IMG/VR virus record: IMGVR_UViG_3300010334_000053
Strand: one strand, 5' to 3'
Length of the DNA: 20,000 bases
Source: an uncultured virus (IMG/VR IMGVR_UViG_3300010334_000053)
Taxonomy: Duplodnaviria > Heunggongvirae > Uroviricota > Caudoviricetes
Part shown: piece after piece, positions 3,007-19,757 of the stretch
Numbering within the stretch: the first letter of the stretch is position 1
Layout of the letters: each line of letters starts with the position of its first letter
The notes under the pieces: generated by a model
What the model was told of the DNA's origin: nothing
The model's database searches: none
The model's input: the letters and a program-made list of their open reading frames with translations, nothing else
Program-made: the position numbers and the translations under genes

Positions 3007-3074
3007 AATAATGGTGCGAATCGCGACAGTGGGGATTGTCCATTCGCTCTAACAGTTTAGAAGGAACTATCAGT
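3005..3074 (+). promoter_or_regulatory. late promoter (TAAATA) plus structured leader of endonuclease gene
   Basis: GCGAAT/ATTCGC stem, inner GACA/TGTC, TCTAA, AGTT/AACT hairpin over the RBS; covaries with 1044-1112. Confidence 0.65.
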
Positions 3075-3701
3075 ATGAATATTTATTACGTCTATGCTTA
3101 TCTCCGTAAGAAAGATCTCACACCATATTATATCGGTAAAGGTAAAGATAATCGTGCTTATCGCAAACATAATGTACCTGTACCAAGGGATAGGTCTATG
3201 ATTGTTTTTCTAGAAACAGGATTAACCAATATTGGTGCCTGCGCATTAGAACGACGCTATATCAGGTGGTATGGACGAAAAGATTTAGGTACAGGAATAT
3301 TGCGAAATAGAACTGATGGCGGCGACGGTATACCGGGAATCTTGCACACAGTTGAACGAAATCAAAAAATTAGTAAAAAACTAAAAGGTAAATTTGTATC
3401 AGAAACTACTAGAAAAAGACTTAGTGATTCTCATATAGGAAAACAAACAGGATCTAATAATGGAATGTTTGGTAAAACTCATTCTGAAAAAGTAAAGAAT
3501 GATCATAGATTGCGTATGATAGGTAATAAAAATAGTCTAGGAAATAAGCATACCGAAGAAGCTAGATTAAAGCAATCACTACGTGCTAAGAATAGGGAAA
3601 TTAAAATATGTCCCCACTGTGGATTTGGATGTACTGGATCAAATTATACAAGATGGCATGGGGATAATTGTAAAAAATTAGGTCAAAAAAATATTGGGTA
3701 G
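3075..3701 (+). CDS. GIY-YIG homing endonuclease with NUMOD3 motifs
   Basis: [28 protein letters not shown] repeats, CPHC..RWHGDNC; start moved to ATG 3075 after AAGGA. Confidence 0.85.
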
Positions 3702-3733: not shown

Positions 3734-5158
3734 TTAGATGTCGTATCGTGGATCCATGATAGTTGACATCATAATTCCCACCGGCGTAAATTTATCCATT
3801 TCTGCTGACAGTATGGACTTCATAATAGCCGGAGAAAATCCGCTCACAAGTGCCGCACCGCTCTTGTCTGCCTTCACAGGAACATTATCTGAACTGTTAA
3901 GATTCCAAAATACTATTGCAGGAACCTGATATCCCGCTTCTGCGTACTTGCGTTCAATCATTTCCATAGCAGAATCATCATTTCTGATGCACTGATTGAA
4001 CTGCATATCACTGAGCACCAAAAGGATCTCAGGCATTTCACTCTGAGGTACACCGTTCTTGACTGCAACATCAAGAATCTTGTTGAATGCAGCGTGTAGG
4101 TTAGTACTCATGCCCCATTCGCTCTTGACCATCTGTGCAGCCTTTTCAACAACATTGCCCTTGAGAGTAACTAGCTGAGGACTGGAACTGAAAGTAAGGA
4201 AAGTGTCCTTGAACTTGCCAGTGTTCTTGTCCGCAAGATAGAGACCCAGTGAAACTGCAACGTCAAGGCAAGTAACCTCACTCTTAGAAGAGCTACCACC
4301 TGCACGACAAGTCATAGAACCCGAAACGTCAACCAGTGGAAGGATGTTTGCATCCCCAACGTAGTTAGGAAGCGCATTCCACTGTGCCACAACATGGTCA
4401 AGTTCAGTCTTACCAAGTGCTACGCGACTGTAAGGATTGATTACACCCTTGAGAACGTCATACGGATACACTGCGCCAGCGTTGACCTTTACAGTAGGAT
4501 CACCCTTTACCAGCTTGGCAACATACTCGGCAAACTTTGGAGTATTGCGAGTAAAAGCCTTCTTGTAGCGCGAAGCTGCAAGACTAGGAACATGGTTAAA
4601 GTTGATGTTATCCCAATCCTTAGAACACATCTGAGTTTCAACAACCCGGGTCAGGTTAACCAGCGTCTTACGATACTGCTTAGGGCTCATACCAAGTGCA
4701 GATCGAAGTTCTGCTGCCACTGCGCCCTTGCGAGGCATCCACTTGGCGCAAAGACCATTGCCACTGGCAAGTGCATCTGCGATCAGTGCGTATGCTTCGG
4801 TCTTGAGATCGATGGTTTCAAAGACGAGTAGATCGTCCCATCGACCAATTTCTGGTACCTTTGCAAGAAGTGCCTTTGCTGCATCGGTGTCAGTCTTTTC
4901 CAGCTGAACAAGGATGTCACGGAAAATCTTACGTTCGCCTGCACCGCCACGAGCGTCACGCGCCCACTGTGCAACGCGCAGTGCAATTTCTCGATTTTCC
5001 ACGAATGCGCCAGTGAAGGCAGGCACGATGTCCTTGCCACGCGATCCGCCAACGGCAAAGAAAAGGTCGACGTTCTTGGACGCTGACGACTTAAGAGCCT
5101 TCATACCATTTGCAGTCCTTGCAGATTGATTTGCAACCGCTTCAATAAAAGTAGACAT
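3734..5158 (-). CDS. Ro60/TROVE-like protein (DUF2828-type helical domain plus C-terminal VWA)
   Basis: RDARGGAGER, GRWDDL, AKWMPR, MIDAS DVSGSM, LSDMQF, FWNL, LVSGFS motifs. Confidence 0.8.
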   Translation of the reverse strand: MSTFIEAVANQSARTANGMKALKSSASKNVDLFFAVGGSRGKDIVPAFTGAFVENREIALRVAQWARDARGGAGERKIFRDILVQLEKTDTDAAKALLAKVPEIGRWDDLLVFETIDLKTEAYALIADALASGNGLCAKWMPRKGAVAAELRSALGMSPKQYRKTLVNLTRVVETQMCSKDWDNINFNHVPSLAASRYKKAFTRNTPKFAEYVAKLVKGDPTVKVNAGAVYPYDVLKGVINPYSRVALGKTELDHVVAQWNALPNYVGDANILPLVDVSGSMTCRAGGSSSKSEVTCLDVAVSLGLYLADKNTGKFKDTFLTFSSSPQLVTLKGNVVEKAAQMVKSEWGMSTNLHAAFNKILDVAVKNGVPQSEMPEILLVLSDMQFNQCIRNDDSAMEMIERKYAEAGYQVPAIVFWNLNSSDNVPVKADKSGAALVSGFSPAIMKSILSAEMDKFTPVGIMMSTIMDPRYDI

Positions 5159-5218: not shown

Positions 5219-5247
5219 ATTATATACAAAAATTATTTTTGTGTCAA
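5219..5247 (-). promoter_or_regulatory. consensus sigma70 promoter of the Ro-like gene
   Basis: TTGACA-17 nt-TATAAT. Confidence 0.85.
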
Positions 5248-5976
5248 TCGTTTTTTTGCTATTTTAGAAGTTATTCCGACATAGTCCCAATTTTCTTTAG
5301 GTCCTGTTTGTGACCAAAATACGGTTTTTGGCACTCTTATACAATTTCCTTGCCTATCAACAACGGATACTGTTTCTTTTATTTCCAGCCAATTGTGGGT
5401 ACCTTTTGCTACCCTATCTGATGCTACAGAGGTGCCATCTGCACGTTTTAATAAATTATGAGTGCCATTTTTAACACGCTTATTATTAAGATCAGTTGAG
5501 TGCTGTGAACCTTTTTCGCCTTGAAAATTATGTCTTCCTTCTTTAACTAACTTGGCAGTTCGTTCTTTTGCAAATTTTGAACCTGTTTCTCCCTGCCACG
5601 GGTGTGTTCCGTTTTCGACCATTTTTCTTGCTTTAATTGAAGAAGCAATTTTCATATTTTTAGTATTGTGTTTCTTGTGGCCTTTGTCACTTCCTCCATC
5701 AATACCGTTTTCTATTTTAAAATTTGCCCATTCCTTTGATTCAACAATATTATTATTTTTTGAAAACGTTGATGCAGCTTTTATGCATTCATTTTTGTCT
5801 TCAAAGAATCCAATAATTTCGGTTTCAAATAATTTACCATGTTTTCGTAAATGTGCCAGCCAATATTCACCAGATCCAGTATATTTGTATGGATCAGAAC
5901 TAATAGTTTTTCCAAAATACTTTAAGCCAGTTATTGTGTGGGTTTTAACATAAAGATATGTAGGTTTAAAAGACAT
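5233..5976 (-). CDS. GIY-YIG-like homing endonuclease with GxH(N/P)-aromatic repeats
   Basis: YLYVKTH..GLKYFGKT..YTGSG..W..H, WANFKIENG; TAAATA and AAGGAG upstream. Confidence 0.75.
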   Translation of the reverse strand: MSFKPTYLYVKTHTITGLKYFGKTISSDPYKYTGSGEYWLAHLRKHGKLFETEIIGFFEDKNECIKAASTFSKNNNIVESKEWANFKIENGIDGGSDKGHKKHNTKNMKIASSIKARKMVENGTHPWQGETGSKFAKERTAKLVKEGRHNFQGEKGSQHSTDLNNKRVKNGTHNLLKRADGTSVASDRVAKGTHNWLEIKETVSVVDRQGNCIRVPKTVFWSQTGPKENWDYVGITSKIAKKRLTQK

Positions 5977-6227: not shown

Positions 6228-6413
6228 TTAGATTGTTTGTTCGTGTTGTTCTATTAATCTATCTATCCAAAAAATCCACCAAGCCTGTTGCAATGCTTTA
6301 TATAACTCTATTGCAGCAGGATCTTTTTGAATATGTACTAAATCAGATTCGGTCGGGTGTGTTTCTCTATACCAAGAAGCAAACGTAGTCGAATCATGTT
6401 GTCTTTTTTTCAT
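6228..6413 (-). CDS. small hypothetical protein
   Basis: ATGA overlap with the Pth2 stop. Confidence 0.6.
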   Translation of the reverse strand: MKKRQHDSTTFASWYRETHPTESDLVHIQKDPAAIELYKALQQAWWIFWIDRLIEQHEQTI

Positions 6414-6808
6414 GTAAACGTCTTTAACGCTTTGATATCGTCACCAATATTTTCTTCTGCAATTGGACCAAGTCCTAAACAGGTCGTGGTCGGCTCGTCG
6501 AACACAGTAAATGCAGCATCAGTTACAAGACTAGTACCACAGATATCCTTGTACTTGTCTTGCAGCACACGTAGTTCTTCTACAGTGTCTACAATCAGCG
6601 TGATCTTATAAGCCCGATCGCCATTCTGGTACTTTTCTGCATCACTAGGTCCGTCACTGGCAAATCCATGTTCACCAGGAAATCTTTTTACAGAATCCCA
6701 AAAACTGTGAAGGTAGGCGTGTCCTGCCTGAGTACACATCTTACCACGAATGCCGTTCATTTTCTTTACCGATTCAAGGGCAAAGATACAGTACATTTTA
6801 ACTTTCAT
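6410..6808 (-). CDS. pth2: peptidyl-tRNA hydrolase, Pth2 family
   Basis: GKMCTQAGHA, KITL, DAAFTV, TTTCLGLGP; true start MKVKMY (the ORF-track extension overlaps tRNA-Cys). Confidence 0.82.
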   Translation of the reverse strand: MKVKMYCIFALESVKKMNGIRGKMCTQAGHAYLHSFWDSVKRFPGEHGFASDGPSDAEKYQNGDRAYKITLIVDTVEELRVLQDKYKDICGTSLVTDAAFTVFDEPTTTCLGLGPIAEENIGDDIKALKTFT

Positions 6809-6826
6809 ATCTCTACCTTTCAAAAT

Positions 6827-6904
6827 TGGAGCGCCGGGCGTGATTCGAACACGCGGTGTTACTGCTTTGCAGGCAGTTGCATTGGGCCTCTCTGCCACCG
6901 ACGC
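6827..6904 (-). tRNA. tRNA-Cys(GCA)
   Basis: Cloverleaf, ACTGC-CTGCAAA-GCAGT, U73, CCA. Confidence 0.92.
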
Positions 6905-14828: not shown

Positions 14829-15308
14829 TTATTTTTCTTGCCTTAAGGAAAAAACTTCTATTGCGGCTAGAATGTGTTCATCCTGTAGACCTTCGCCGTC
14901 TTCAATATACACTAGCCGTTTAGATTCAGTAAACTTTCTGTCATCAAAGCAAACCCAATCGCATTCACCATTGTCAGCGATCCACTGATTAATGGCAATT
15001 AATCTACCAATACCACGAACAGTGCTTGTCACATCTGTATAATCAATGTTCGGAAAAATTGTTCTCCAATCATTGTGAAAATGTGTTGGATCAATTCCCC
15101 AATGTATTAAATCTTCTTTTAAAGTTTTTCCATAGGGCAAGTGATAATTGTGCATGGAGTTGGTTACAATTTTTGCACCAGACTCAAGGCACAGATCATT
15201 GAGCAATTGAATTGAAACTTTATTACAAGCTAACCGCAGTTCAGATACCATGACTAGAGAACTTACATTAATTATTGGACCATCAATATCTAAAAATATT
15301 ATTCTCAT
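14829..15308 (-). CDS. HAD-family phosphatase (Swiss-Army-Knife RNA-repair type)
   Basis: IFLDIDG, IVTNS, R..AI..W, CFDD, GL motifs. Confidence 0.72.
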   Translation of the reverse strand: MRIIFLDIDGPIINVSSLVMVSELRLACNKVSIQLLNDLCLESGAKIVTNSMHNYHLPYGKTLKEDLIHWGIDPTHFHNDWRTIFPNIDYTDVTSTVRGIGRLIAINQWIADNGECDWVCFDDRKFTESKRLVYIEDGEGLQDEHILAAIEVFSLRQEK

Positions 15309-16186
15309 CTTTTAATTAATTCTTCTGTTAAGTCTATAAAACGAGAAAAGTCATGTAGCTTGTTCTTCCAATCATCAGGAATGTTCGAAAGGCCATAAAA
15401 TGCACCAGCAATTTGTCCAGTAACTGCGGCAACAGTGTCAGTGTCATTGCCCAAGTTAGTGGCAAGTAAAATTGCATCTCGAAAATTATCTGTTTGATAC
15501 ACGCACCATAGGGCAGCATGAAGAGTATGGATAACATATCCAGATGATGAAACATGATCACGACCAACTTCAAGTGATGTGAGAATGTCCTTTACACTCT
15601 GTACCCAATGCTCTTTAGCAGTTATATTAAAGATGCGACTCTTTTCAGTAGCATAGATTGCATTAAGTAACACTTCCGCCATAAGTTCACATGAATGTAA
15701 ACAAGCAGGTGAAGCATGAGTTGTTTCGCTCTGTAAGTTTGCCGTTTCAATTGCCATTTCTTCATTGTCGTAATGTGCAATCACTGCTGGACTCAGGCGC
15801 ATAATTGAACCGTTGCCGGCGTTATATACAGACTTGTTGTTAGTTACTGAGCCAGTTTCAACATAATCCATAATACCACTAATAGTAGTGTTGCCAATGT
15901 CAAAACACCTACCAGTTGATGAGTTTGTTCCATTACTGTACCAATCTACAAAACGATCCAGCAAATCAGCTTTATCAAGCTGGGAATTAGCGATAAGACT
16001 TTCTGCAAGGCAAAGTGCCATACTAGTATCGTCAGTCCAATAACCTACAGGAAGATTGAACGGTCCACCACCAAGCATGTCAGTAACAGGTTCAAAAGTA
16101 TCACGTTCTCTAAATTCCACGGCGGCGCCAACACAGTCTCCAATAGCAAGCCCAATAAATGCTCCAGCTAATTTGTCTTTTAACAT
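15305..16186 (-). CDS. ADP-ribosylglycohydrolase (DraG/ARH family)
   Basis: GDCVG, WTDDT, GNGSIMR, TTH, DTDTVAAVTGQIAGA. Confidence 0.92.
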   Translation of the reverse strand: MLKDKLAGAFIGLAIGDCVGAAVEFRERDTFEPVTDMLGGGPFNLPVGYWTDDTSMALCLAESLIANSQLDKADLLDRFVDWYSNGTNSSTGRCFDIGNTTISGIMDYVETGSVTNNKSVYNAGNGSIMRLSPAVIAHYDNEEMAIETANLQSETTHASPACLHSCELMAEVLLNAIYATEKSRIFNITAKEHWVQSVKDILTSLEVGRDHVSSSGYVIHTLHAALWCVYQTDNFRDAILLATNLGNDTDTVAAVTGQIAGAFYGLSNIPDDWKNKLHDFSRFIDLTEELIKR

Positions 16187-16209: not shown

Positions 16210-16238
16210 ATTATAACACTAGAATGAATTGCTGTCAA
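16210..16238 (-). promoter_or_regulatory. consensus sigma70 promoter of the ARH-HAD operon
   Basis: TTGACA-17 nt-TATAAT. Confidence 0.85.
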
Positions 16239-18978
16239 CTATCTCCATGCCAAGATTTGCTATATAAGCCATTAACTCTTCAATCTCTTGACTGGTTGGA
16301 TTTAATGTGCCAATAGCTTGATCTAATTGATCAATATTTACTTGATTTGACTGTGCTGCACTCTTAATCAATTGTTGAACAGCAGGTAAATCTTTCAATG
16401 GTGTTTTTTTCTTAGCAATATCCTGTATTGGAAAATCTAAAAGTTGCAATTGTTTGAACCCAATATAGTTAGTAGAGCCATCTGAAAAGGTTACATCTGC
16501 GATTTTCATTATATTGGCTACATGAGCTATCTTACCAGTTTTGCCGGCAGCAGGCCCATCAATAACTTTAACAGAATCGCCTTGTTTAAACGAATGGACA
16601 GGTATTACTTCAGGTTCAGAAGTTTTAATTTTTTCAATTTCACTAGGATAAAGAAATGTCTTATCATCAGAATCGTCTAATTTTACTATAACATTGCCAC
16701 TTTTTTGAATCTGAGTTATTGTGCCAGTTTTTCCTGTATTGTGCGTTCCTATGATTTTTACCTTATCGCCCTCTGAATATTGTTTAGGTGTTTTTACTTC
16801 TGGCTCTGGTTCCCACTTGAGATTGTCTAAGTTCAAATCTGGATCATTTTTATCGGGGTTATCAAGTTTTTTAACAGTGAATGTATCATCGCCGTATTCG
16901 TCTATAGCCTGATCATATTCATTCTGAGTGAGGAATTGTCCCTGATAAAGCGGTGTAAGTCCTGGCATAGTAACTTCATAAGCAGCATCTATTAAATTAG
17001 GATTTTCAGCTTCGGCTTTAATCTTTTCAATGTTTTTTAAAGGAACGTCATAAGCAAAGCCACTATCAAATTCTACATCAACTTGTGGGATTGTGGAATA
17101 AGCGTATATTATTTTACCAGTTTTACCGGCGGATGCATGGTCACCAATGATCTTAACCTTATCACCGTTTGAGACCTGACCAATTTCCAGAGTCTTTGGT
17201 GACGCCCCAATTTTTTCAAGATAAACAAAGGGAACATCATGTAATTTTTTACCGTTATCCAACACCAGCGTAGTGTCTTTATGAAAATCAAATACATCAT
17301 CAACAGTGGCTATATCACCTGCGTTAGGGTGCTTGCCAATAATTTTTACCTGGTCACCGACTTTGAAAGCGCCTGTAATTGTTTCTTCTGGTTTTTCTTC
17401 CGACTCTTCTGCATCTAATTTTTTAAATCCACCTGATAGAACATTACCGGATTCGCCGCTTTTGAAAAATATTTCAATCATGCCGCTGTTGTAAATATAG
17501 GATACTGTGCCAGATTGACCATAGTATTCACTATCAGTATTGGTGACTTCAACTGTATCACCTTTTTTAATTTTATCAGTGTCAGTTTTTGGTTCTAGTA
17601 TTTTAATTTGGTTTTGCTTAACAGTACCGTACTCGCCGCCTTTGAAAAATATCTCGATTCCACCATCCTTATATATGTAGGATATAGTTCCAGATCGGCC
17701 ATAATATTCACTATTAGTATCAGTAACTTCAACTGTATCACCTTCTTTAAGATCAGGAGTTTCTGAATCAGCTTCACTTTCGTGTTTAATATCTTTAATC
17801 TTGAAGTCGTTGGTCCAATTTTCACCATCCAACTTCACTGATACTTCGTCATAATTGGTGTAAACATACTGTACTTCACCGGACAGCCCGTAATAGTGAT
17901 TACCCTTGGATTTAACAGTAACACGGTCACCAATTTCATATTTTCCAGGTGTAATGATTTTAGGCTTGCCTTCGGGATAAACTTGTAGTTCTAGAAACTT
18001 CATGATATTTTTCATGAGACTTTCTTGAACAGCATAATATGCACCACGAACAAATACTTCTGAATGAGAAGTAATGGCACCTGTTAGGTCTTCTTGATCT
18101 AAATCAAATCCTTTGACTATTCCTTCAGGAGTCATGATGTTTTCAAGCTCAGTTAAAGGCATGAATTCTTTTGGGATGTCACCTGCTTCAATAGCTTGTT
18201 TAATTGAGTTAAGATTGGATTCTAGATCATATTGCCCAAAGAGATCATTAAAGGTAAAATTATATTTTGCTCCTAGTTTTTCTCGATTGGTTAACACGAA
18301 ATCTTTTAAAGGAGCAAGTAGTTCGTAGTCCAACATTTTTGGATAGGATCCTCTATCTAAAATTAAATCCTTGGTGTTTCGACTCCAGCTAAATGAAAAT
18401 CCATCTTTGGGAAACATTACATATACTTTGCCATATCCCGAAGCCTGACTTTTATCACCTGATACGAATGATGAATTATCTCTTCTTGCTTCGAATCCAG
18501 CTGCTTCCATGCCTTTGTTAAAAATATCACTGAGTCGTGAACTACTTGTCATTACACGGCGCTCATCAAATGGTTTACCATAGAGAGCATCTTCAGTGGA
18601 TTTAATTCCACGATAAAAAACTTTAGCATCTCGTGATTTAAAATCTGGATTTAGATCAATGTATGTTTGTACAATTTGTGTGCAATTGTTTGCAATCCTC
18701 GTCATTAAATTATAAAATTGGATTGGAAGATTATTCTTTTCACTTTTAAGATTTGACTTCTGTTGTTTTAGGGAATCAATTTCTGCATAGAGTCCCTGCT
18801 TCATTTTTTCATATTCAGCAGCAACTGAATCAGGCACTTTCATATTATTTGCAAGGGCCGCGCTTTCTTCATAATCAGTGATTTTCTTCAGCAGTTTTTC
18901 TAGTTTTGGCAAGTTAAGGGACATTCCCTTGCGCTCACCCGGCTTCAGTTCGGATTTAAAGATTTCTATAATTCTCAT
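16219..18978 (-). CDS. large late protein: putative ADP-ribosyltransferase domain, 7 KOW repeats, RpoC-like fragment, sigma70 region 1.1-like C-terminus
   Basis: FYRG/SFVS/SEV triad; GDxV..G..G repeats; PGLTPL..EYGDDTF; C-terminal helical segment ending GMEIVD. Confidence 0.7.
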   Translation of the reverse strand: MRIIEIFKSELKPGERKGMSLNLPKLEKLLKKITDYEESAALANNMKVPDSVAAEYEKMKQGLYAEIDSLKQQKSNLKSEKNNLPIQFYNLMTRIANNCTQIVQTYIDLNPDFKSRDAKVFYRGIKSTEDALYGKPFDERRVMTSSSRLSDIFNKGMEAAGFEARRDNSSFVSGDKSQASGYGKVYVMFPKDGFSFSWSRNTKDLILDRGSYPKMLDYELLAPLKDFVLTNREKLGAKYNFTFNDLFGQYDLESNLNSIKQAIEAGDIPKEFMPLTELENIMTPEGIVKGFDLDQEDLTGAITSHSEVFVRGAYYAVQESLMKNIMKFLELQVYPEGKPKIITPGKYEIGDRVTVKSKGNHYYGLSGEVQYVYTNYDEVSVKLDGENWTNDFKIKDIKHESEADSETPDLKEGDTVEVTDTNSEYYGRSGTISYIYKDGGIEIFFKGGEYGTVKQNQIKILEPKTDTDKIKKGDTVEVTNTDSEYYGQSGTVSYIYNSGMIEIFFKSGESGNVLSGGFKKLDAEESEEKPEETITGAFKVGDQVKIIGKHPNAGDIATVDDVFDFHKDTTLVLDNGKKLHDVPFVYLEKIGASPKTLEIGQVSNGDKVKIIGDHASAGKTGKIIYAYSTIPQVDVEFDSGFAYDVPLKNIEKIKAEAENPNLIDAAYEVTMPGLTPLYQGQFLTQNEYDQAIDEYGDDTFTVKKLDNPDKNDPDLNLDNLKWEPEPEVKTPKQYSEGDKVKIIGTHNTGKTGTITQIQKSGNVIVKLDDSDDKTFLYPSEIEKIKTSEPEVIPVHSFKQGDSVKVIDGPAAGKTGKIAHVANIMKIADVTFSDGSTNYIGFKQLQLLDFPIQDIAKKKTPLKDLPAVQQLIKSAAQSNQVNIDQLDQAIGTLNPTSQEIEELMAYIANLGMEIVDSNSF

Positions 18979-18980
18979 AA

Positions 18981-18998
18981 ACATATTTATAAATATGT
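18981..18998. promoter_or_regulatory. palindromic bidirectional late promoter
   Basis: ACATATTTATAAATATGT contains TATAAATA on both strands between divergent genes. Confidence 0.75.
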
Positions 18999-19001
18999 AT
19001 T

Positions 19002-19757
19002 ATGAAAATAAAAGATCTTTTAAATGAAACCGCTATACAAGAGGGTCCGTATGATCCTCACATTTTTAAAGCAGTTTTTATGGCCGGAGCACCAGGTGCT
19101 GGTAAAACAACTACCGCTAATAAGCTACTCTCTGGTACAGGTCTAAGACACCTCAATGTTGATGATTTTTATAATCTTATGAGACATAAAGGACGCGCTA
19201 GTGGCGATCAAAACAAGGATTACGAAGCATCTTGGAAAACGTATCGCGGCCTAGAAGAATTACTTCGTCAAGGTCGAATTGGTTTAATCATTGATAGTAC
19301 TGCGAAGAATCCAGAAAAGATGGCTGATGTTAAAGCAGACCTAGAAGAAATGGGTTATGAGACTGCAATGATTTTCGTTAACTCATCATTAGAAACAAGT
19401 CTCAAAAGAGCCGCTGAACGTTCACAACGTCCTGGTCCAGACTTTGGAAGAGTAACTCCACCAAAACATATTGAAGATACCTGGAATAAGGTGCAAAAGG
19501 GAATAGGTTCATTACAGAACTTATTTGGAGCAAGGTTCTTTGTTATCGATGCTGAACGTCCCGATGCCAGCATTAACTATGTTGACAAGAGTATTAGATC
19601 TTGGCTTAACACGCCAGTTAAAACACAGGCAGCACGACAGTGGTTATCTGATCCTAAAGCTGCACAAAAGCAAACAAGCACAAAGCCAGCAAAAGATGAA
19701 CCTGCACAAACAACAGGTCAACGCCCTGCTGAACCGGAAACTCCCAAAGAAGTATAA
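19002..19757 (+). CDS. P-loop kinase (AAA_33/zeta-toxin/polynucleotide-kinase-like)
   Basis: GAPGAGKT, NVDD, IIDST, RxxxR lid. Confidence 0.75.
   Translation: MKIKDLLNETAIQEGPYDPHIFKAVFMAGAPGAGKTTTANKLLSGTGLRHLNVDDFYNLMRHKGRASGDQNKDYEASWKTYRGLEELLRQGRIGLIIDSTAKNPEKMADVKADLEEMGYETAMIFVNSSLETSLKRAAERSQRPGPDFGRVTPPKHIEDTWNKVQKGIGSLQNLFGARFFVIDAERPDASINYVDKSIRSWLNTPVKTQAARQWLSDPKAAQKQTSTKPAKDEPAQTTGQRPAEPETPKEV

Follow-up and report, generated by a model that had tools for sequence, protein, structure and literature searches.

Why would a phage protein carry, in the middle of a row of KOW repeats, a piece that looks like bacterial RNA polymerase (RNAP)? The question is raised by a 20,000-nucleotide stretch of DNA from an uncultured virus of the Caudoviricetes (IMG/VR record IMGVR_UViG_3300010334_000053), which was analyzed as a whole and is called the window here. 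Its longest open reading frame (ORF), on the minus strand at 16219-18984, translates into a protein of 921 amino acids (aa), P0001. An initial annotation of the window, made from its letters, had proposed that a 37-aa peptide in the C-terminal part of this protein is a captured fragment of RpoC, the beta-prime subunit of RNAP, and that it offers a clue to the host. We find that P0001 residues from about 663 to 712 are, by sequence comparison, a free-standing homologue of the beta-prime clamp toe, and that, within a family of jumbo-phage proteins, one sub-lineage has acquired this module as an insertion between KOW domains.

A segment of P0001 is homologous to the clamp toe of RNA polymerase

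Translation of window positions 16870-16980 gives P0001 residues 669-705, an exact match to the peptide that had been placed there. When the whole of P0001 was compared with PDB sequences by phmmer, the top match was a beta-prime chain (7ye1_D, residues 130-181, E 2.6e-5). With an 81-aa piece (residues 640-720) as the query, 40 of the 43 PDB matches at E<=10 were beta-prime chains, all of them falling at one site, about residues 112-187 of the chain. The best three E values were 6.9e-8, 1.3e-5, and 1.5e-5, and the three non-RpoC matches were weak and unrelated (E 0.6-0.9). The likeness to RpoC that had been proposed is thus significant in database searches. So, too, is its proposed position in the clamp region just before the GAEA motif borne out, as RpoC fragments P0014, P0017, and P0018 continue directly from the matching segment into GAEA.

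In an exhaustive HMMER scan that covered 1.84 billion representatives, 11 proteins reached E<=1e-3: five RpoC fragments (51-58% identity), two members of the P0001 family, a further protein, P0011, and three repeat-rich proteins. These last three (P0010, P0012, and P0015) were rejected as carriers of the module, their scores being false positives made of many weak stretches. Among longer proteins, a word-indexed search with the 81-aa piece matched family members only (4 matches among 62 candidates). Tblastn-type genome searches covered 301 genomes from the alphaproteobacterial class to which G005 belongs and 41 from the order that includes G002, a metagenome-assembled genome (MAG) of Puniceicoccaceae. 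A single match per genome was found in 246 of the former, a tally that takes in G046 and G245, flagged as unpublished, and in 38 of the latter. The matched frames are about 1400 aa long in nearly all of the matches listed, with a few shorter, cut frames.

No gaps are needed to align the module with 15 RpoC segments over about 38 residues, and the coordinates of the PDB match map P0001 residues 669-700 (query residues 30-61) to Escherichia coli (E. coli) beta-prime residues 144-175. Papers define the clamp toe as E. coli beta-prime residues 144-179; by the match coordinates, the core of the module extends from residue 144 to about residue 179 and so spans the whole clamp toe. Residues 669-705 include seven Asp or Glu and one Lys or Arg, which makes them acidic in composition, as distinct from a computed surface. 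In an AlphaFold2 (AF2) model, the module is predicted to form a strand-strand-helix-strand unit with a predicted local distance difference test (pLDDT) score of about 73-75, bounded by linkers at 657-662 and 720-734 with pLDDT below 50. The module is like the beta-prime clamp toe in its gapless alignment over the whole element, at 55-63% identity, and in its acidic composition, and its predicted strand-strand-helix-strand unit may share the fold of beta-prime 144-179. Unlike its counterpart, it has been excised: the upstream zinc-binding region and the GAEA continuation are missing, and the flanks are KOW domains.

The full beta-prime architecture was not found in P0001, which has no RNA_pol_Rpb1 match in Pfam and no rpoC match in NCBIfam; the 81-aa piece, too, matched no NCBIfam family. 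When the model of all 921 residues was used for fold searches (Foldseek PDB, BFVD, and VIA), the clamp-toe module was not identified, and the results are dominated by matches to KOW/Spt5/NusG or to helical hairpins. About 10 residues upstream of the module, at the end of a KOW unit (window 16980-17070, residues about 640-668), also resemble the part of beta-prime that precedes the clamp toe. As relatives without the insertion have these residues too, they lie outside the captured piece, and the upstream likeness may have arisen by coincidence, or it may be a microhomology that assisted in the capture.

Within a phage protein family, one sub-lineage carries the module as an insertion between KOW domains

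P0001 has the following layout.

16219-18984, minus strand: ORF of P0001, a multi-domain phage protein with a 35-member family; relatives start at the third codon (MRI...)
17950-18732, minus strand: conserved N-terminal globular domain, residues 85-345 (phrog_11975, E 2e-27)
17017-17940, minus strand: five KOW/SH3-like barrels, residues about 349-656 (Pfam, family profile, AF2 model, and fold search)
16849-16998, minus strand: clamp-toe-like inserted module, residues about 663-712 (RpoC homology and an indel; core residues 669-705 at 16870-16980)
16435-16782, minus strand: two more KOW barrels, residues about 735-850 (Pfam and a NusG KOW fold match)
16228-16401, minus strand: acidic helical C-terminal domain like sigma70 region 1.1, residues about 862-919 (PF03979, relatives, and AF2)

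The annotation had described the peptide as captured and as an interruption of KOW repeats, and both descriptions agree with what we find. Pfam places KOW-type domains on either side of it, and the insertion shows as a clean indel: in an alignment of six proteins, the module is present in P0001, P0002, P0003, and P0004, with a clean gap in P0005 and P0006. The N-terminal domain is shared by 35 proteins, of which P0001-P0004 alone carry the module. In a tree of that domain, these four carriers lie inside one clade of seven (support 99/97), all of whose members end in the region-1.1-like tail; the 28 proteins outside the clade are without the module. The pattern within the clade requires three changes, or else recombination, which is plausible because P0002 and P0001 are 55% identical in the N-terminal domain and 91% identical in the C-terminal part. 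The module is in frame and occurs in clusters from four different contigs as well as on two IMG/VR contigs, and the P0001 family as a whole is found on contigs up to 337 kb.

With the alignment of 35 sequences as input, AF2 models P0001 at a mean pLDDT of 78, with the N-terminal 84 residues as long helices and with a chain of seven KOW barrels. In Pfam, KOW4_SPT5 (53.7 bits, cut-off 27), KOW (23.1 bits, cut-off 22.3), and KOW7_SPT5 (28.1 bits) all score above their cut-offs. The family profile matches the multi-KOW region of Spt5 (E 2.5e-14), and a NusG KOW domain (2xhc_A) superposes on model residues 797-849 with a Z score of 10.0 and a root-mean-square deviation of 0.9 over 53 residues. Thus, the seven barrels are like those of NusG and Spt5, scoring as KOW by sequence and by fold. 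Unlike NusG, P0001 gave no match to an NGN domain in Pfam and NCBIfam searches, and the length of the array differs among relatives. The name 'NusG' given to relatives at JGI reflects KOW repeats only.

The C-terminal domain consists of three predicted helices (pLDDT 85-88) and has 8 acidic against 2 basic residues in 60. Its PF03979 (Sigma70_r1_1) score in P0001 itself is below the cut-off (18.5 bits against 22.5), whereas the orthologous domains of P0004 (33.4 bits) and P0005 (25.9 bits) pass; nine of the 35 family members match Sigma70_r1_1 at E<=0.01, the best at 3.7e-10. Acidic and helical, the domain is like region 1.1 of sigma70, a likeness that exceeds the Pfam cut-off in these two relatives. 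It is unlike sigma70 in its place at the C-terminus of a phage protein that has no other sigma regions.

The phage modules are conserved, share derived residues, and recur in a second protein

Identities and substitutions within the module were counted by hand on an alignment of 15 RpoC sequences with four phage modules: those of P0001 and P0004 and two copies from P0011. P0001 and P0004 are identical at 33 of 41 module positions, or about 80%, while their C-terminal parts overall are 43% identical. Unlike beta-prime, the phage copies share substitutions at positions that are invariant in beta-prime. These few shared positions suggest a single capture, followed by spread among phage genes.

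P0011 (546 aa), probably a jumbo-phage protein, ends in two clamp-toe-like modules in tandem and also contains a DUF4116 domain. In its N-terminal part it is similar to a hypothetical protein from Salicola phage SCTP-2 (440 kb). As P0011 is unrelated to P0001 and carries two tandem copies, the module has been reused.

We also compared the window with L008, a related viral contig of 84 kb. The 50 codons of the module differ by no amino-acid-changing and one synonymous substitution, and residues 663-921 hold two synonymous differences in all, too few to show purifying selection on the module. The region-1.1-like tail (window 16228-16401) has six amino-acid-changing and no synonymous codon differences, small numbers that give a hint of diversifying selection on this domain.

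The module does not identify the host

If the fragment had come from the present host, then its closest RpoC relatives might have pointed there, as the initial annotation expected. This expectation failed: the best beta-prime matches are spread over several bacterial groups, and no near-identical donor appears among them. Seven genome-contig matches are to the RpoC of a Puniceicoccaceae MAG, Pleomorphomonas, Thioglobus, Rhodobiaceae, two alphaproteobacterial MAGs, and one gammaproteobacterial MAG. The best local identity is that of the Puniceicoccaceae MAG (63% over 38 aa), with the others at 50-55%. In the larger genome searches, the top listed identities reach 61% in the alphaproteobacterial class and 63% in the order of G002, so that both sampled groups share a ceiling of 55-63%. 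The GC (guanine plus cytosine) content of the module, 39.6%, is ordinary for the gene, being equaled or exceeded in 21% of same-size intervals. With no near-identical donor and ordinary GC content, the capture is therefore old, or else the donor is unsampled.

The N-terminal domain offers a lead to ADP-ribosylation

Two neighboring genes bear on the rest of P0001.

15305-16186, minus strand: ADP-ribosylglycohydrolase gene, downstream of P0001 (PF03747, E 4e-70)
19002-19757, plus strand: Zeta-toxin/AAA_33-type kinase-like protein, divergent neighbor (domain match; fused in relative P0002)

The N-terminal domain (residues 85-345) is modeled with pLDDT above 90, and its invariant residues across the 35-member family include R125-G126, S147, and E309. 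In an hhalign comparison with T4 ModB, R125-G126 falls on R73-G74 in a local match with a probability of only 2.9% and an E value of 0.015. In this match, the invariant F/L-Y-R-G-I motif of the family aligns with L71-Y72-R73-G74-I75, where R73 is the catalytic Arg of ModB. The structural neighbors of the domain in the Atlas include weak ART-PolyVal rows, with template-modeling (TM) scores of 0.28-0.50. Fold searches with the whole P0001 model did not identify the domain, those in BFVD giving only uncharacterized phage proteins, and PADLOC returned nothing meaningful. The ADP-ribosylglycohydrolase gene lies directly downstream of P0001, and this gene order is kept in L008. Collectively, we take these observations as a lead only, towards a possible identity of the N-terminal domain as an Arg-type ADP-ribosyltransferase.

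Between the window and L008, the flanking genes are 96-98% identical in protein. P0001 shows 80 amino-acid-changing against 48 synonymous codon differences in the same comparison, and the glycohydrolase is only 80.5% identical; the two genes evolve as a pair faster than their neighbors. The Zeta-toxin/AAA_33 kinase-like domain is fused to the N-terminus of P0002 (1031 aa), and because of this fusion the kinase-like neighbor and the large protein probably act together. In Agrobacterium phage Atu_ph07 (L015, 41-54 kb), a gene that matches the N-terminal domain is surrounded by some dozen hypothetical genes of similar size in tandem array; several Atu_ph07 proteins match the domain by structure.

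Elsewhere in the window, an RNA-repair-type gene cluster (49-939, 1990-2526, 3734-5158, 6410-6898, and 14829-15308) includes a T4-type RNA ligase, a phosphoesterase, a phrog_850 'RNA-binding protein' (DUF2828/DUF7788), a PTH2-type peptidyl-tRNA hydrolase, and a HAD domain of 'Swiss Army Knife' RNA-repair proteins. Three homing-endonuclease-type ORFs (phrog_314, phrog_655 with NUMOD3, and phrog_12324) are scattered among the genes at 1113-2033, 3036-3701, and 5233-5976.

The module may offer a dock to ligands of the clamp toe

Basic residues of the sigma70 non-conserved region (NCR) bind the E. coli clamp toe, which protrudes and is acidic (PMC8113463). This contact is made during promoter escape and in a sigma-bound elongation complex, and weakening it increased abortive synthesis. 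Crl also contacts the E. coli clamp toe, and in a 2026 structure the clamp toe and the NCR form a cleft that holds the ejected region 1.1. In structures published from 2019 to 2026, the clamp toe is described as a knob on which the NCR, region 1.1, and Crl dock.

We tentatively read the module as a putative decoy for the ligands of the clamp toe, or as a tether or handle on sigma/RNAP, and give this reading a little under an even chance. The initial annotation had likewise taken the fragment for a mimic, a plausible view. It is suggested by a module that is conserved and acidic and that stands alongside a region-1.1-like domain and NusG-type barrels; the presence of this tail and of NusG/Spt5-type KOW domains in the same protein points towards a role in transcription. 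The acidic module would give the host factors that bind the clamp toe an alternative dock; in E. coli, these are region 1.1, Crl-type factors, and a basic patch on the sigma70 NCR. Docking would tether the whole protein, the N-terminal enzyme domain included, to the sigma/RNAP holoenzyme. Alternatively, the module may draw sigma70 off its normal contact and so impair promoter escape. Extra contacts with the transcription machinery would come from the KOW barrels and from the acidic region-1.1-like tail, and the N-terminal domain, if it is an Arg-type ADP-ribosyltransferase, would set marks that the neighboring glycohydrolase could remove.

Several observations weigh against this proposal. Found in only 4 of the 35 family members, the module is accessory. 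Only in E. coli has the contact between clamp toe and NCR been documented, and it may, as one paper suggests, be specific to gammaproteobacteria. The module has also changed: in the L-T-E stretch, the Glu or Asp found in all 15 RpoC sequences is Gln in all four phage modules; the residue after the first Tyr is charged in all four and hydrophobic in beta-prime; and the beta-prime Ala near the end is missing from three of the four. Such substitutions could alter the ligand surface, and the charged residue after Tyr would fit a face that no longer packs on the clamp. As for the enzymatic part, residues 84-345 have no Pfam match even at E<=10, and hhalign comparisons of the family with T4 ModA and Alt gave no match.

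Of the alternatives, the one that survives best is that the clamp-toe homologue does not mimic RNAP and now serves only as a small, stable spacer or folding unit in a protein built like beads on a string. This would explain a module that sits between flexible linkers among many small barrels, that 31 of 35 family members dispense with, and whose beta-prime-invariant positions have changed. We nevertheless consider it unlikely, as the module is the best-conserved piece of the C-terminal part between P0001 and P0004, retains its acidic character, is reused in a second protein architecture, and co-occurs with other transcription-derived modules.

Less probable still is a role in cis, in which the module would be a pseudo-substrate or specificity element that copies a beta-prime site seen by the protein's own putative enzyme domain or by a partner. 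Most family members do without the module, and P0011 has it without a P0001-type enzyme domain. These points tell against the idea even though the module shares its polypeptide with a conserved enzyme-like domain, all phage copies have exchanged Glu or Asp for Gln at a beta-prime-invariant position, and an ADP-ribosylglycohydrolase gene adjoins. We find it just as improbable that the module docks a phage-encoded partner, such as a sigma-like or anti-sigma protein, or self-associates, instead of binding a host factor. Large phages do encode many proteins of unknown function, the P0001 family occurs on large contigs, and the long helices of the N-terminal 84 residues might oligomerize, but no candidate partner was found in the window.

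Finally, an origin of the RpoC likeness in chance, convergence, or an assembly chimera is rejected by the evidence and keeps almost no credit with us: the segment is short (37-50 aa) and repeat-rich proteins did score as false positives in the exhaustive scan, but the likeness reaches E 6.9e-8, 40 of 43 PDB matches converge on one beta-prime site, one match per genome recurs throughout most of both sampled groups (246 of 301 and 38 of 41), and the module stands in frame in clusters from four contigs and on two IMG/VR contigs.

Discussion

T4 Alt, ModA, and ModB are ADP-ribosyltransferases that act on RNA polymerase and on the translation apparatus. P0001 may be like them in joining an enzyme to a means of targeting; unlike P0001, they have no KOW, clamp-toe, or region-1.1 modules. 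T4 also encodes Srd and Srh, which are annotated as postulated decoys of host sigma (NC_000866) and are like P0001 in that a phage protein resembles a piece of the host transcription machinery. Compared by annotation only, they differ from P0001 in being small single proteins that resemble sigma, not beta-prime. The polyvalent proteins of phages and conjugative elements, which are deployed in host conflict (PMC5512222), may offer a third parallel in that many domains are joined in one phage polypeptide, as with the Zeta-toxin-type domain fused in P0002. Proteins of this kind (Iyer et al. 2017) unite several effector domains for conflict with the host and enter together with the DNA.

None of these precedents, whether T4 Srd/Srh, phage ADP-ribosyltransferases, or polyvalent proteins, carries a piece of beta-prime. 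Within the text covered by full-text literature searches, no phage-encoded copy of a beta-prime element was found, and the main text of two surveys, of jumbo phages and of viral NAD/ADP-ribose systems (PMC9503650 and PMC7824862), does not mention KOW or NusG. We rate P0001 as belonging with the host-mimic modules of phage takeover proteins.

A bolder proposal, which we think unlikely as a whole, is that this jumbo-phage effector family combines, within a single polypeptide, several decoys that imitate parts of the host transcription machinery. The clamp-toe copy would capture the sigma70 NCR, the region-1.1 copy would fill the DNA channel of RNAP or the cleft between clamp toe and NCR, and the KOW array would add avidity, so that sigma70-dependent promoter escape would be shut down. 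An N-terminal ADP-ribosyltransferase would then be placed on RNAP or sigma, with the adjacent glycohydrolase resetting the mark.

The phage copy of the clamp toe, conserved and set beside a region-1.1-like domain, points to this knob as a candidate surface for phage attack. At about 50 aa, the module is also a small portable reagent for probing the ligands of the clamp toe. If the family does combine such decoys in this way, then P0001 would be the first example of a phage-encoded protein that mimics a surface of core RNA polymerase, and it would provide natural evidence that the contact between clamp toe and sigma matters outside E. coli.

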